From Terriglobia bacterium (GTDB lineage Bacteria > Acidobacteriota > Terriglobia > 20CM-2-55-15): a DNA stretch of 64,000 bases. The stretch covers positions 288,001 to 352,000 of the forward strand of contig CAXWPJ010000009.1 of assembly GCA_963664115.2 (NCBI GenBank), given 5' to 3'. Each line of letters begins with the position of its first letter. Position 1 is the first letter of the stretch. A program made the position numbers and the translations under genes. The notes under the pieces are model-generated. The model was not told the DNA's origin, ran no database searches, and was given only the letters and a program-made list of their open reading frames with translations. This document shows, piece after piece, positions 29,432-34,803 of the stretch.

Positions 29432-30583
29432 ATGAAGGACATCCTCCAGGAACTCGAAACGATCCTGCCGGACGGCGTTCGGCTTCTCGAACGCATAGTC
29501 AATCTGGAATCACCCAGCTACGACCGGGCACTGGTCAATCGACTCGTTCAGTTGCTGGCCGACGAATTCGGAAAGCTCGGCGCCGCAACCACTCGCATGC
29601 CCGAAGAAGATCGAGGCGACCACATGTTGATTCGTTTCCCAGGCGAAAGCGATACGCCAATCATGCTTCTGGGACATACCGACACGGTCTGGCCGAAAGG
29701 CACGCTGGTCGAACGTCCGTTCACGATAGACGGTGACATCGCGACCGGCCCCGGAGTATTCGACATGAAGGCCGGAATCGTAATGATGTGGATGGCCATG
29801 CGCACGCTCCTTCAAGTTCGGGGAAAGTTGACACATCCCATATCGATTCTCCTTATCAGCAATGAGGAAGTCGGGAGTCCAGGCTCCAGAGCGCTCGTCC
29901 GGAGTCAGGCCGCCGGGGTCGGTGCCGTGCTGGTGCTGGAGCCGCCATTGCCGGGCGGCACTCTGAAAACGACCCGCAATGGGATGGGACGTTTCGTCGT
30001 GAAGGCGGTGGGAAAGGCGGCTCATACCGGCATCAATCCTGAGGACGGAGTTAACGCTGTTGAAGAGATTGCCCACCAGATATTGCGTATCCGGGAACTC
30101 GGCGATGTCGGGAAAAAGACGACCGTAACAGTCGCCGTCGTCGAAGGTGGCACCCGTCCCAACGTCGTTCCCGAGGAATGCTTTGTGCAAGTTGATGCAC
30201 GCACCCCTAGCCAGGAGGAGGCAGAGCGGATCACCACAGCGATAAACTCACTCAAACCCGTTCTTGAGGGGGCACGGCTGGAAGTAGACGGTGCGTTTCG
30301 GCGGCCACCGCTCGAGCCTACGCCCGGGAATACGAAGCTTTTCGACTGTGCCCGAGAAATAGCTGGCGAGTTGGGTCGCGAACTCACAGGAGGTGCGACC
30401 GGGGGCACGTCCGACGGTAACTTGACCTCGGCCATGGGAGTGCCAACCCTCGATGGCCTGGGGGCCCTCGGACTGGGAGCGCATCAGCTCGAAGAGCGAG
30501 TTGAATTATCGTCCCTCCCCTGGCGAGCGGCATTAGTCGCCGGGCTGATCGAACGAATCGGGAAATACCGCGGCCTCCGGTAG
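29432..30583 (+). CDS. M20 family metallopeptidase (carboxypeptidase G2-like)
   Basis: GHTDTVW, GPGVFDMKAG, NEEVGS, SDGN, GAH; its stop codon lies inside the IS left inverted repeat. Confidence 0.92.
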   Translation: MKDILQELETILPDGVRLLERIVNLESPSYDRALVNRLVQLLADEFGKLGAATTRMPEEDRGDHMLIRFPGESDTPIMLLGHTDTVWPKGTLVERPFTIDGDIATGPGVFDMKAGIVMMWMAMRTLLQVRGKLTHPISILLISNEEVGSPGSRALVRSQAAGVGAVLVLEPPLPGGTLKTTRNGMGRFVVKAVGKAAHTGINPEDGVNAVEEIAHQILRIRELGDVGKKTTVTVAVVEGGTRPNVVPEECFVQVDARTPSQEEAERITTAINSLKPVLEGARLEVDGAFRRPPLEPTPGNTKLFDCAREIAGELGRELTGGATGGTSDGNLTSAMGVPTLDGLGALGLGAHQLEERVELSSLPWRAALVAGLIERIGKYRGLR

Positions 30584-30618
30584 TGTCCTAATAGTGGGTG
30601 GGTTTTGAATTTCGCTTC

Positions 30619-30978
30619 TTAGGATGCCGGTTTCGCGTTTTCTTCTTTAGGGGCGGCCGATTCTGTTTTGGCGGCATCAATAGCATCGATCTGTCTCTGA
30701 AGATAGCCGATTAGATTACGCGCCATTTGGTGTGGCATTGATACACCGACAAGAGGCCTAACTATAACGATGTCTTTATCTGATGGGTTGGGAACGAACT
30801 CGCCGAAGACTATTCTAAATTCTAAAGGATCATGCATCAGTCGCAAAACGCTGGCATGCTTATACTCAACGCTAGTGAACAGCTGATTTATGAGGCGGAA
30901 GTTACCCTCGGCTTCTTCCTTGCTCACCTCTTCCCTCGAAAAACGAATATCATTATCTGGCATGTAATATCGTTCCAT
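30619..30978 (-). CDS. DUF3467-like small protein (IS cargo)
   Basis: HASVLRLMHDPLEFRIVFGE...VGVSMPHQMARNLIGYL resembles the DUF3467 pattern by eye; start uncertain (30963, 30978 or 31026). Confidence 0.55.
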   Translation of the reverse strand: MERYYMPDNDIRFSREEVSKEEAEGNFRLINQLFTSVEYKHASVLRLMHDPLEFRIVFGEFVPNPSDKDIVIVRPLVGVSMPHQMARNLIGYLQRQIDAIDAAKTESAAPKEENAKPAS

Positions 30979-31588
30979 CCGTACCTGTCTCTTTGCCCCA
31001 GAGCGAAGATTTCGATGAACCTCCATGTGGCTCGTTCTGTGTCACAGAATCGGCGAGAAAAGTAATCTCTCCCGTCTGCTGAAATTCTTGAAGCACTGGT
31101 TCCTTTCCCGAACCTACAGCCACAGAAAGATGCGGAACCGCTTCCAGTGCGCCGCTAGTTCCAGCGGACGGCGCACCGGCGCTATTGGCAGCATATTCTT
31201 GCGACTCCTCAAGTCCTTGCCTATGAAATTCTGGATCTTCCGAGAAAGAAACTCTCTCAAAGCTAGCTGATCCCTGAACGCCAAGATCTGATTCAAGAGA
31301 GCCGAAATCTTCGAATGATACCCTCAGCCGTAAATCGAAAGCCTTAGCCAGCCTTTTCAGCGTGTTAATGCTCCAAGCTGAATAGTTGACGTCTTCAAGA
31401 ACGGAAATTCTGGGCTGCGCCATAGCCGAGAGATCTCCAAGCGCGGCCTGGGACAGATTCCTTTGCTCTCTTAAAACCTTAATCTGCATGGCGATCATTG
31501 AGTTTAAGTGTGCTTCTGCAAAGGCATGGCGATATTCATGGTCTTTCATATCGCTGTCGTGTCGCAATTCTTCAAAAATTTCATTCAT
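30953..31588 (-). CDS. XRE-family HTH protein, putative antitoxin with long C-terminal tail
   Basis: QIKVLREQRNLSQAALGDLSAMAQPRISVLE..TLKRLAKAFDL; 4-nt overlap with the upstream toxin-like gene. Confidence 0.82.
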   Translation of the reverse strand: MNEIFEELRHDSDMKDHEYRHAFAEAHLNSMIAMQIKVLREQRNLSQAALGDLSAMAQPRISVLEDVNYSAWSINTLKRLAKAFDLRLRVSFEDFGSLESDLGVQGSASFERVSFSEDPEFHRQGLEESQEYAANSAGAPSAGTSGALEAVPHLSVAVGSGKEPVLQEFQQTGEITFLADSVTQNEPHGGSSKSSLWGKETGTDGTILHAR

Positions 31589-31971
31589 CGAAAACGTCTC
31601 CTCTTCATATTTCGGAGAAGTATCAGTCTGTTCTCGTCGGCGATATTGGGAGCGTTTACCGGATCTAGCTCGCCGTCTCGTTCAACTGCTCCGAATAGAA
31701 ATGTGAATTCAGCGTCATTATCGATTGGTCCAACGCAAATCATTGGTCGTAACGCTCTTGTTGGCGTGTTCACCCTAAACTTTCGGATATGCCGAAAAAG
31801 AGGACCGGTAAGCAGCCCGGCTGGAAGGTCCGGACCATACTGCTTCAAAAGCAGGACTTTTTGCTTAAAAGCAGCGATGTCACTCGGTTGTAGATCTACA
31901 GAACGTATCCAAACGCCAATGACACTTGTCACGCAATCCGCTTCCGTAAAGTCGTAAACACGCCACGCCAC
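31585..31971 (-). CDS. Putative type II toxin (RelE/HigB/Gp49-like)
   Basis: 128 aa, basic; GPL..HIRKFRV...LRPMIC...FLFGAVER pattern; coupled upstream of the HTH gene in HigBA order. Confidence 0.6.
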   Translation of the reverse strand: MAWRVYDFTEADCVTSVIGVWIRSVDLQPSDIAAFKQKVLLLKQYGPDLPAGLLTGPLFRHIRKFRVNTPTRALRPMICVGPIDNDAEFTFLFGAVERDGELDPVNAPNIADENRLILLRNMKRRRFR

Positions 31972-31972
31972 A

Positions 31973-32031
31973 GTAATTATATAGAAAATATTATAATTAC
32001 GCTTGCTTTATTAGCATAATAATATTATTAT
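31973..32031. promoter_or_regulatory. AT-rich divergent promoter/operator region
   Basis: Perfect 9-bp IR gtaattata-N10-tataattac (31973-32000), two TATAAT on the minus strand, and palindrome ataataatattattat (32016-32031). Confidence 0.6.
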
Positions 32032-32052
32032 ATATCACATCATGCAGAAAAC

Positions 32053-32097
32053 AAGAGGCCAGCAAGCTCGGAACAAGCCGCTGGCCTCTTTGTTTCT
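32053..32097 (+). terminator. Hairpin followed by T-rich tract (terminator/attenuator-like)
   Basis: aagaggccagc-N16-gctggcctctt 11-bp stem, then tgtttct; A-rich 5' flank suggests it may be bidirectional. Confidence 0.5.
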
Positions 32098-32102
32098 CAT
32101 AT

Positions 32103-32176
32103 GCCCCTGTACCTCAGACGCACAGAGGTGCCGGCTGCTAACCGGCTCGTCGCGGGTTGGAGTCCCGCCAGGGGCA
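32103..32176 (+). tRNA. Non-canonical tRNA / tRNA-like gene, anticodon GCT, short variable loop, no encoded CCA
   Basis: GCCCCTG TA CCTC AGACGCACA GAGG T GCCGG CTGCTAA CCGGC TCGTC GCGGG TTGGAGT CCCGC CAGGGGC A: 7/4/5/5-bp stems, all Watson-Crick. Confidence 0.85.
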
Positions 32177-32629
32177 CTCGTAAACCGTCCCGCCAGCAGC
32201 GTGAACTGCCGACGGGACATATCCCAAGCCGAAGCCAAGGACAGGGTTGATAGACCCACTGTCATTTTGGATGGCTTGAACCACGAAAGGCAAGTTCAAA
32301 ATGACATGTCACAACTGCCAGAACCGATCCCACAAACACGGTAAGGACCGAAACGGTGTTCAGCGCTACCGATGCCTTCCCTGCAAACGCGTGTTCCTCG
32401 ATCCAAATCACGAACGCCCACTAGGACGAATGCGGATCGATCAGGACAAGGCCGTGCTGGCCCTGAATCTCTTGGTAGAGGGAAACTCAATCCGCTCCAC
32501 CGAACGCCTCACGGGGCTGCATAGGGACACGATCATGGACCTTCTAACTCTGGCCGGTGCACGTTGCGAACGCCTGATGAACGAACGAATCCGCAATGTT
32601 CCAGTCAGTGCGGTCCAGGCCGACGAGAT

Positions 32630-34014
32630 GAGTTATAACCGAATCTGGTGTTTGAGGGATTGAATAAGAGCGGCGTATCTGGTTGATTTGTTGTGACAAA
32701 ACTTCAAAGCAACCATAGGAGATACGCCACTGTGAGCAAGAGTAACGTGAATGGACCGGAAGGTCGAGAAACGATTGAGGATCCAGTAACAGAACTACTA
32801 CGAGTTGGGGCACAGCAACTGATCCAACGCGCAGTGGAAGCCGAATTGGCAGAGCTGCTATCCCAGCACGGTGGCCGGCGAACTGAGACAGGAAACGCCG
32901 GGGTGGTACGCAACGGTTATCTGCCGGAACGCGAACTGCAGACGGGATTGGGTCCGGTAACAGTCCAAATCCCGAAGGTCCGTGCCAAGACGGGCGAAGC
33001 TGTGACGTTCCGATCGGCCCTGGTACCACCGTACATTCGGAAGACGAAGTCGCTGGAAGCAGCGGTGCCGTGGTTGTATTTGAAAGGCGTTTCCAGCGGC
33101 GAGATGGGTGAGGCCCTAAAAGTTCTTGTCGGTCCCCAGGCGCAGGGTCTGTCGGCGAGCACGGTATCGCGGTTGAAACAGGTTTGGGGCGAACAGTACC
33201 GCCTCGGATGCGAGGAGCGTTTGGATGCAGATCGCTGGGTCTATGTCTGGGCCGACGGCATCTACAGCGGACTTCGGGCGGAACAAACCAAGTTGTGTGC
33301 ATTGGTCGTGATCGGCGTGAATGAACGCGGAGAGAAGCGTTTCCTGGCGATCGAAGACGGTGTACGGGAATCGACACAGAGTTGGCGCGAGGTCTTGTTG
33401 AAGCTGAAGTCCCGTGGGATGAATGTTCCGAAGTTGGCCATCGGTGACGGTGCGATGGGGTTCTGGGCCGCACTGGAGGAAATCTATCCCGAGACACGTC
33501 AACAACGTTGCTGGATGCACAAAGTCATGAACGTCCTCAACTGCCTGCCCAAGTCGGTCCAGGCGAAGGCGAAACAGGCCCTGCACTCGATCTGGCAGGC
33601 CGAGACGAAGGCAGACGCCGAGAAGGCATTCGACTTGTTCATTGAAACCTATGAACCGAAGTATCCGAAAGCCACACTCTGCCTGCAGAAAGACAGAGAG
33701 GAACTGCTGGCCTTTTACGACTTTCCGGCCAAGCACTGGCAGAGCATCAGAACGACGAATCCCATTGAGTCGACCTTTGCCACCATTCGACACCGAACGA
33801 AGCGATCCAGAGGTTGCCTGACACGGGATGGCATGCTGCACATGATGTTCAAACTGGGCCAGTGCGCTGAGAACAATTGGCGACGATTACGAGGATTCGA
33901 TGATCTGAGCAAGGTAATCATCGGAGTGAAATTCAACGATGGTGTCGAAGCGACACAAGTCGATCAGGCCGCCGCTTGAATCAATCTCCTAAACACCACT
34001 TTTGACAATAACTC
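32630..34014 (+). mobile_element. IS256-family insertion sequence, 1385 bp
   Basis: IRs gagttataaccgaatctggtgttt / aaacaccacttttgacaataactc (18/24); 9-bp TSD cgacgagat at 32621-32629 and 34015-34023. Confidence 0.95.
32693..33979 (+). CDS. IS256-family (Mutator-type) DDE transposase
   Basis: RNGYLPER, YVWADGIY, IGDGAMGFW, QRCWMHK, RTTNPIESTF; intact ORF. Confidence 0.95.
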   Translation: MTKLQSNHRRYATVSKSNVNGPEGRETIEDPVTELLRVGAQQLIQRAVEAELAELLSQHGGRRTETGNAGVVRNGYLPERELQTGLGPVTVQIPKVRAKTGEAVTFRSALVPPYIRKTKSLEAAVPWLYLKGVSSGEMGEALKVLVGPQAQGLSASTVSRLKQVWGEQYRLGCEERLDADRWVYVWADGIYSGLRAEQTKLCALVVIGVNERGEKRFLAIEDGVRESTQSWREVLLKLKSRGMNVPKLAIGDGAMGFWAALEEIYPETRQQRCWMHKVMNVLNCLPKSVQAKAKQALHSIWQAETKADAEKAFDLFIETYEPKYPKATLCLQKDREELLAFYDFPAKHWQSIRTTNPIESTFATIRHRTKRSRGCLTRDGMLHMMFKLGQCAENNWRRLRGFDDLSKVIIGVKFNDGVEATQVDQAAA

Positions 34015-34803
34015 CGACGAGATTTGGACCTTCGTTAAGAAGAAGGAAAAGCGCCGTCGCTACTCGGAGCGGTTCAACATGAAGATCGGCGACGCCTACA
34101 CCTTCGTTGGGATCGACGCGGACACAAAGCTTGTGCTGTGCTTCGAACTGGGCCGTCGAGATACGTCGTCTACGGTTCGGTTCATGTCTAAGCTGGATCG
34201 AGCCACGGCAGGCCGCTTCCAACTCACGACGGACGGTTTCACCCCATACGTCGGAGCCGTCGAAGGTCAATTTGGGGCGGATATCGATTTCAGTCAACTA
34301 GTCAAGGTGTACTCGTCCGACGAAACGACGCGAGAAAGATACAGTCCTGGGCACGTGGTCGGAACGTTCGATAGAAAGATCACTGGAGATCCGAAAATCG
34401 AGCGCATCAGTACATCATTCGTAGAACGGCAGAACCTCACTATGCGCACGTTCATTCGGCGTATGACGCGCCTCTGTCTGGCGTTCTCAAAGAAGTGGGA
34501 GAACCTGAAAGCAGCGCTAGCGTTACACTTCGCGTACTACAATTTCTGCCGCGTTCACCGGTCCCTGAAGGTAACTCCAGCGATGGAGGCGGGAATTGCG
34601 GATCATGTATGGACCATCGAGGAACTAATTTCCACTCACTAATAGGACACTACCCGGCCTCCCGCTTGTTTGACATTCTGAGTTAAGCAGACCTAAAATT
34701 AGGGCTTGGCTGGCCACCTCGATTTTACATAGGTGGTGATAAAGCACCTTCGCACTGAAGGTGCATTTTTATTGCCCACGACTGGCCCCGCCTCTGAAAC
34801 CAT

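Follow-up and report, generated by a model that had tools for sequence, protein, structure and literature searches.

We analyzed a 64,000-nt stretch of DNA from a Terriglobia bacterium (hereafter, the window), in which a class I tRNA gene lies inside an IS1-family insertion element. The element, as bounded by its terminal inverted repeats (TIRs) and an 8-bp target duplication, is 4.1 kb long. Its features, in window coordinates, are as follows.

30579..30601, + strand: left TIR of the IS1-family element, 23 nt, with the 8-bp target duplication at 30571-30578
30619..31026, - strand: passenger ORF of 135 aa, no family match
30953..31588, - strand: 211-aa Xre/HTH protein, predicted HigA-like antitoxin/repressor, after the toxin-like gene (Pfam HTH_37, E 8e-8)
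31585..31971, - strand: passenger gene of 128 aa, predicted HigB/RelE-superfamily toxin, transcribed away from the tRNA
31973..32031, + strand: AT-rich divergent control region with a palindromic operator-like stretch and a weak sigma70-like promoter
32046..32097, + strand: hairpin A, with a U-rich 3' arm, between the promoter and the tRNA (inverted repeat I13 and fold)
32103..32176, + strand: class I tRNA gene with Arg identity, GCU anticodon, C19:G56 and C10:G25; CCA not encoded
32191..32306, + strand: structured transposase leader comprising hairpin B and a predicted start-site hairpin (fold)
32301..32629, + strand: N-terminal part of the IS1-family transposase, zinc ribbon, interrupted (NCBIfam transpos_IS1, IS1_IS1595_Zn)
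32630..34014, + strand: IS256/Mutator element inside the IS1 transposase gene, with a 9-bp duplication
34015..34642, + strand: C-terminal DDE part of the IS1-family transposase (Pfam DDE_Tnp_IS1)
34632..34654, - strand: right TIR, 23 nt, with the 8-bp target duplication at 34655-34662

A contig from public run X12 joins position 30570 to position 34655, with 8 letters that fit both sides, and an empty site of the element therefore exists. A zinc-ribbon DDE transposase, TIRs, a target duplication, and this empty site together mark the element as a member of the IS1 family. An earlier note on this DNA had placed the tRNA in such an element, and correctly, but the transposase gene is split by the IS256 insertion, so that each piece scores under the whole-protein NCBIfam cut-off. 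An intact relative of the split transposase (P0001) has 315 aa and is 93% identical. The tRNA sits 198 nt ahead of the transposase start at 32301. The ORFs of the element are the toxin-like gene, the HTH gene, the ORF without a family, and the transposase, with no synthetase among them. We note that the genome holds about 50 near-identical copies of the IS256-family element at 32630-34014, which suggests that it expanded recently. ARAGORN called no tRNA in the other IS1 copies of the host (C9, C4, C6, and C10). Separately, the host has two long-arm tRNA-like genes (G000:C9:454859 and C9:c543440), called Leu(TAG) and Val(TAC) by ARAGORN, with bodies that look Ser/Tyr-like; the former lies near another host IS1 copy.

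The two genes transcribed away from the tRNA look like a HigBA toxin-antitoxin pair, as judged from structure modeling. The AlphaFold model of the 128-aa protein (pLDDT 94.5) had its best Foldseek match in a Streptococcus pneumoniae toxin-antitoxin module (6af4; TM 0.71, E 1.2e-3, probability 1.0), followed by HigB1, HigB2, and RelE, and the predicted pair has the HigBA arrangement of a RelE-fold toxin upstream of an HTH antitoxin. At the sequence level, Pfam Gp49 was matched by 5 of 103 homologs of the toxin-like protein, a PDB sequence search with the toxin family gave nothing credible, and a near-copy was the only match in a word-indexed homolog search.

The cloverleaf at 32103-32176(+) has the stems GCCCCTG/CAGGGGC, CCTC/GAGG, GCCGG/CCGGC, and GCGGG/CCCGC, the D-loop AGACGCACA, the anticodon loop CTGCTAA, the T-loop TTGGAGT, a 5-nt variable loop, and A73. 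Its tertiary core is intact (U8, A9, A14, G15:C48, and G46). ARAGORN called tRNA-Ser(GCT) here, the sole tRNA called in the whole window, and the Rfam covariance model RF00005 scored it at 54.6 bits (gathering score 29; E 6.9e-10), which together with the 7/5 cloverleaf and conserved core makes it a member of that family. The minimum free energy fold is likewise the cloverleaf (z -2.1). The 74-nt cloverleaf with these four stems, which the earlier note had read from the letters and proposed to check with ARAGORN and a covariance model, is thus borne out; its description of the gene as hidden is not, as standard tools detect it. The gene is single-copy in the genome. Its closest host tRNA is tRNA-Arg(CCU), with a score of 50/73, and its score against the nearest other C19:G56 tRNA compared is 56. 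The host also encodes a normal tRNA-Ser(GCU) with a long arm, as well as two tRNA-Arg(CCU) genes, both with the usual G19:C56, and CCA ends are encoded in 10 of the 52 host tRNA calls.

The body and the anticodon of this tRNA belong to different amino acids. Bacterial tRNA-Ser needs G73 and a large variable region (PMC9976931), and the 5-nt variable loop and A73 leave the tRNA with no serine identity, as had been proposed. In the same source, bacterial ArgRS recognizes A20, C35, U/G36, and A/G73, and position 34 is no determinant. The Arg identity set A20, C35, U36, and A73 claimed for the tRNA matches Table 1 of PMC9976931. For the minor Arg determinants, it has C3-G70 and carries C2-G71 in place of G2-C71. 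It is not an Arg isoacceptor in the usual sense (CGN or AGR anticodon), as GCU reads AGC and AGU. The host encodes an ArgRS, of which the N-terminal domain was found. Because position 34 is no Arg determinant while A20, C35, U36, and A73 are, we propose that ArgRS would charge the tRNA with arginine, which we consider highly probable given these identity elements.

The earlier note had drawn attention to an inverted elbow pair, C19:G56, and both nucleotides are indeed present. We ran a search pattern for this elbow (G18-C19-A20 with G56) on 401 genomes of the phylum. It matched 31 of them: 30 matches were tRNA-Arg(CCU), spread over 29 genomes, one was Arg(UCU), and one was the window gene. In each of five such genomes that were checked, no CCU tRNA other than the C19:G56 gene was found, and C19:G56 is therefore likely inherited from an Arg(AGR) tRNA ancestor; it is also likely neutral. 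The C19:G56 housekeeping tRNA-Arg(CCU) genes (G169:C1:4168217, G199:C1:1237436, and L047-L076) are concentrated in two families. Among viral contigs, 27 A20 tRNAs have C19:G56, of which 26 have NCU anticodons (12 CCU, 10 UCU, 2 GCU, and 2 ACU) and one has CCG; 8 of 13 viral non-A20 matches fold fully, and these phage tRNAs are for Ile, Thr, Gly, Phe, and His (L388, L390-L393, and L397-L399). The inverted elbow as a unique trait is ruled out by these ordinary Arg tRNAs and phage tRNAs; it is a natural variant of housekeeping tRNAs. A G19C/C56G variant retained aminoacylation in work cited in PMC3602588.

We defined a family by a pattern of class I fold, A20 body, and GCU or ACU anticodon, in which A20 and the D-arm are fixed and position 73 is free. 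Of the loci that it returned, 94 are in GTDB genomes and 24 are in viral contigs; together they give 104 distinct sequences from Acidobacteriota, Proteobacteria, Bacteroidota, Saccharibacteria, Actinomycetota, and others. The acceptor stem has 7 pairs in 54 of the 104, 6 in 21, and 5 or fewer in 29; in those with the full stem, A or G73 is present in 52 and CCA is encoded in 21. The 29 with 5 or fewer pairs probably cannot be charged, yet they keep the GCU/ACU loop. Most family members have the normal G19:C56, and 19:56 in all 104 distinct hits is GC in 97, CG in 6, CC in 1 (with a broken acceptor stem), and GG in none. We aligned 46 well-formed, hand-chosen members (the window tRNA, L199, and 44 pattern hits). 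In this alignment, 97.5% of cells are paired, and two-sided change occurs in 18 of 22 pairs, with the three pairs fixed by the search pattern uninformative; covariation at 19:56, which had been proposed as a check, was found in these hand-picked members as 39 G:C, 7 C:G, and no mismatch. The argument from the elbow to selection thus stands in part: the compensatory changes in 18 of 22 pairs speak for selection, and the inverted elbow does not point to a special function. As a control in viral contigs, GCU or ACU occurred in A20 bodies at 24 loci versus 0 and 2 in non-A20 bodies, and RCA or RCC anticodons occurred in A20 bodies at 4 loci, one of them a full cloverleaf.

An IS1-type transposase was found in 18 of the 118 family loci (14 of the genome loci had short flanks only), and in 11 of these the match begins 186-305 nt downstream on the same strand. 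The nearest IS-borne relative of the window tRNA by D-arm and elbow, L149 (Terriglobia), has an ACU anticodon and an encoded CCA and precedes an IS1 transposase by 200 nt. Of the transposase-linked members, the 22 that were scored all retain 6-7 acceptor pairs. Pfam matches of 147 chosen neighboring ORFs placed IS1595 after 3 members, DDE_Tnp_1 after 1, and integrases beside 3, along with scattered HTH, IrrE, RelE, PemK, and SMODS matches and many housekeeping or unmatched ORFs. Overall, many family members adjoin integrases or transposases of the IS1, IS1595, or IS4/5 type. A plasmid blastn search with one family member gave 166 records at 60-90% identity. Looking for the terminal-repeat motif in the surroundings of other carriers yielded little. 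A subgroup with A20 and GCU/ACU has 4-5 acceptor pairs only (L089, L104, L105, L117, L134, L140, L150, L172, L173, and L184-L191); several of these adjoin a converging integrase or a 405-aa ORF on gut phage contigs.

We also sampled from the side of the transposase alone, using metagenome loci with enough upstream DNA and a finder for the T-arm and acceptor stem. A tRNA-like element was present in a slot at -186 to -333 in 14 of 71 transposase-selected loci versus 0 of 213 control windows, and three more (L255, L260, and L274) were added by eye. A second sample gave 10/65 with a looser T-loop pattern and one duplicate, and 6 of 30 loci from relatives had a slot tRNA. Body types were assigned by our own reading of the discriminator, arm length, and D-loop, and the anticodons are mostly non-cognate or stop for their body type. 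Arg bodies with ACU were found in L199 and L323 only among the transposase-selected loci, and these two Arg-body NCU tRNAs are too few to show exclusion of the cognate CCU/UCU. Ser bodies carry UAA, UAC, or GUA, and Leu bodies carry UUA or CUA, stop readers in all five cases. The slot bodies are mainly those whose synthetases ignore the changed anticodon position. Among the exceptions, L357 may be a cognate Val tRNA; L203, L223, L293, L325, L355, and L371 are ambiguous, and the irregular L220 was called Arg(CCT) by ARAGORN at a lowered threshold.

Several slot types deserve mention in their own right. The Leu-type UUA/CUA tRNAs, predicted ochre and amber suppressors, lie about 210 nt before the IS1 transposase (L215, L241, L270, L315, and L330); read-through of stops in the element's own transposase was considered for them and set aside, as none is needed in any of the five. 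Long-variable-arm tRNAs with Ala anticodons (GGC, UGC) and U73, without G3:U70, occur upstream of IS1 transposases in L284, L290, L309, and L310, which belong to the same genus or family as the host. Compact, irregular RNAs with G3:U70 and A73 (Ala identity, tmRNA-like acceptor) occupy the slot in L197, L216, L220, L229, L260, and L312.

On a transposase tree of 170 rows, 15 changes are required to account for the 16 GCU/ACU carriers, supported branches force at least 10 of these changes, and the carriers are no more clustered than shuffles. In this tree, P0001 stands in for the window with its tRNA state assumed, and L079, L100, L383, short matches, and duplicates were excluded. As the carriers are scattered over the tree, we infer that the cassette moves between transposase lineages. 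The slot tRNA is often opposite a HigBA-like pair: homologs of the 211-aa HTH protein adjoin slot tRNAs in other elements, and with at least 1.1 kb of flank, RelE-superfamily genes are upstream in 5 of 7 slot-tRNA loci versus 0 of 39 others (p 1.5e-5, overstated by kinship and crude ORF picking). Taken together, the family and the slot are the discovery here, with the elbow as a side feature, and the window tRNA is a real, selected, mobile tRNA with mismatched identity.

The control region contains a candidate sigma70-like promoter at 32003-32031 (TTGCTT, 17 nt, TATTAT), found by eye; a promoter scan gave no consensus site and this one fell under its threshold. Several relatives have TTGACA at the corresponding place. 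Hairpin A is likely an attenuator or terminator, and a comparable hairpin precedes the slot tRNAs of many carriers. The fold of 32035-32310 has z -4.6, and leaders of like kind also occur in elements without a tRNA. In a predicted hairpin at 32260-32306, upstream leader sequence is paired with the ribosome-binding site and start codon of the transposase. Leader hairpin B often closes with a 7-nt loop resembling an anticodon loop (e.g., CTACTAA or CTGGTAA), as at G000:C9:457660-457690 and in many IS1 leaders, tRNA-less elements included.

Metatranscriptome contigs from two runs of one study cover 32092-32305 at depth 28 and 32081-32249 at depth 15, and the same runs have pieces at depth 3-4 over the toxin-like gene. 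Cover over 18 kb reaches 11/30 and 13/30 bins, with its maximum on the multi-copy IS256, and no contig lies over the transposase N-terminal part or most flanking genes, although holes of this kind prove nothing. The contigs, which reveal neither the ends, the strand, nor the level of the tRNA or leader RNA, are a weak hint that a tRNA precursor or leader RNA exists. Since RNA is seen in host metatranscriptomes, the tRNA is not simply lethal in situ. Related DNA runs carry the label 'sponge metagenome'.

We put slightly better than even odds on the tRNA being an ArgRS-charged missense suppressor that would place arginine at AGC/AGU and be held low by the promoter and hairpin of the cassette. 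Under this model, transcription would start at the divergent promoter and be kept down by hairpin A and by the HTH repressor of the HigBA-like pair; the tRNA would then mature through cleavage by RNase P, 3' processing, and CCA addition; and ArgRS would charge it. Arginine would then probably be inserted at AGC/AGU, where competition with the host tRNA-Ser(GCU) would give partial Ser-to-Arg mistranslation. The least certain part, which we hold tentatively, is that the tRNA may be conditionally toxic, with the divergent repressor and hairpin A in control: it may act as a proteotoxic effector that stress or phage infection releases together with the toxin, or as an addiction device. The AGY share of Ser codons in transposases is 0.362 in 18 carriers versus 0.398 in 79 controls. 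No avoidance of AGY by carrier transposases was seen, and AGY is used at invariant serines; there is thus no sign of self-protection. A broader reading, which we regard as speculative and rather doubtful, is that the slot holds swappable code-breaking tRNAs of IS1-family and other transposons wired to a divergent HigBA-type repressor, each tRNA an inducible toxin with mistranslation as an addiction or anti-phage weapon. Such tRNAs would place Arg at Ser codons, Ser at Leu, Val, Tyr, or Ala codons, Leu at stops, and Ala elsewhere, an assignment we hold to be equally doubtful.

We weighed four other explanations against this missense-suppressor reading. An RNA that is made, and perhaps charged, to soak up a tRNA-targeting nuclease, transferase, or synthetase and so shield tRNA-Ser(GCU) or tRNA-Arg(UCU/CCU) is unlikely but has several observations in its favor: the 29 of 104 family members without a full acceptor stem keep their anticodon loop, the irregular slot RNAs retain mainly the acceptor and T arms, and the slot is linked to toxin-antitoxin pairs by the RelE-superfamily counts above, which include related loci that are not independent. 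Near such systems, tRNAs that are charged but take no part in translation are also known (PMC5389517). Against it, a decoy of tRNA-Ser(GCU) would have no need of Arg identity, and all of the transposase-linked members scored have near-complete acceptor stems. HigB/RelE-type toxins cut mRNA rather than tRNA. The suggestion that the tRNA is a decoy for the neighboring toxin is weak, because that toxin models as HigB/RelE-type and not as a tRNA nuclease, and tblastn found no homolog of it beside any other GCU/ACU tRNA. Somewhat less likely still is a signal in cis, by which RNase P and 3' nucleases would excise the tRNA and set transposase mRNA stability or translation, with the anticodon incidental. 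The constant placement of the tRNA about 200 nt ahead of the transposase start, the RNA contigs over tRNA and leader, and the strongly structured leader covering the start codon would all agree with this. However, the strict finder sees no tRNA in 57 of 71 related elements, tRNAs of this type are also found on the opposite strand, next to integrases, and at a distance from any transposase, a cognate tRNA would do equally well and harmlessly, and a leader-processing role does not explain the retained identity elements.

We give little credence, a shade less than to the signal in cis, to a captured tRNA-Arg gene drifting neutrally after one change at position 34. A single step does separate GCU from CCU/UCU, tRNA-Arg(CCU) is the host tRNA closest to the gene, and the transposase is broken in this copy of the element. 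Yet the four stems are perfect despite the distance of the gene from its nearest host tRNA (50/73) and the nearest C19:G56 tRNA (56), family members show compensatory changes, non-Arg bodies with a one-step change to GCU/ACU hardly occur, and carriers are scattered over the transposase tree. Finally, the genes of the element could use AGY for Arg as a private genetic code needing a tRNA of this type, which we consider very improbable. In one carrier (L097), an AGC codon falls where 91% of controls have Arg; otherwise, in the 11 of 18 carriers with rows, AGY is off conserved-Arg positions and several times on invariant serines, and all five stop-reader carriers lack an in-frame stop in the transposase match.

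Natural tRNAs with mismatched identity are known, and the allo-tRNAs are among the closest. These insert Ser at Leu codons, kill Escherichia coli on induction, and occur near toxin-antitoxin systems (PMC5389517); Mukai et al. 2017 (PMC5389517) also describe some irregular tRNAs linked to toxin-antitoxin systems that are charged but unused in translation. The window tRNA is like the allo-tRNAs and polycistronic irregular tRNAs of that work in its identity-anticodon mismatch, its occurrence in Acidobacteria, and its proximity to such systems; one of the tRNAs described there overlaps a transposon-related ORF, and in E. coli some of them cause mistranslation and toxicity. The supplement of PMC5389517 includes a 7/5 tRNA-Leu with UUA and one ACU entry marked 'pseudo?', with a body that looks Arg-like and a D-loop insertion; in one of its files, 'IS1', 'transposase', and 'tRNAArg' have 0 matches each. 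In contrast to the 8/4 or 9/3 fold, long variable arm, and Ser/Ala identity of allo-tRNAs (PMC5389517), the window tRNA is a 7/5 class I tRNA with Arg identity, and its fold and short variable loop place it outside that group. A 2024 review (PMC11415595) lists tRNA-ProX, Sec/Cys hybrids, and 'additional tRNAs with mismatched identities', with no Arg/AGY class in the parts covering mismatched tRNAs. Streptomyces tRNA-ProX is likewise class I with a mismatch between identity and anticodon, often has A34, and mistranslates in E. coli (PMC11415595). It has Pro identity, A33, and a co-encoded ProRSx, whereas the window tRNA has U33, A37, C72, and Arg identity, with no synthetase variant in its element, and so is not a tRNA-ProX. 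The type also rides transposons and prophages, unlike tRNA-ProX. Housekeeping C19:G56 tRNA-Arg(CCU/UCU) genes share its A20 D-loop, TTGGA T-loop, and class I body, with the anticodon cognate in their case.

IS1-family elements with passenger genes, which we take to be tIS of the ISMhu11 type, share with our element the zinc-ribbon DDE transposase, short TIRs, target duplication, and toxin-antitoxin/HTH cargo; unlike those in the literature found, it carries a tRNA as cargo, in a fixed slot ahead of the transposase leader. Our literature search, with subscription journals mostly outside it, found no paper on Arg-body GCU/ACU tRNAs or on tRNAs in IS1 elements. By analogy, the window tRNA would work like known natural mistranslating tRNAs, yet it falls outside the structural definitions of each. 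It adds to the natural mismatched tRNAs an Arg-identity class of 104 distinct sequences from many phyla and phages, which annotation tools label simply as tRNA-Ser, and it places several miscoding types in one mobile-element slot that comes with candidate promoter, attenuator, and repressor elements. What natural mistranslating tRNAs do in bacteria, stated to be open for allo-tRNA and tRNA-ProX, is thereby made testable with a cassette of less than 2 kb.
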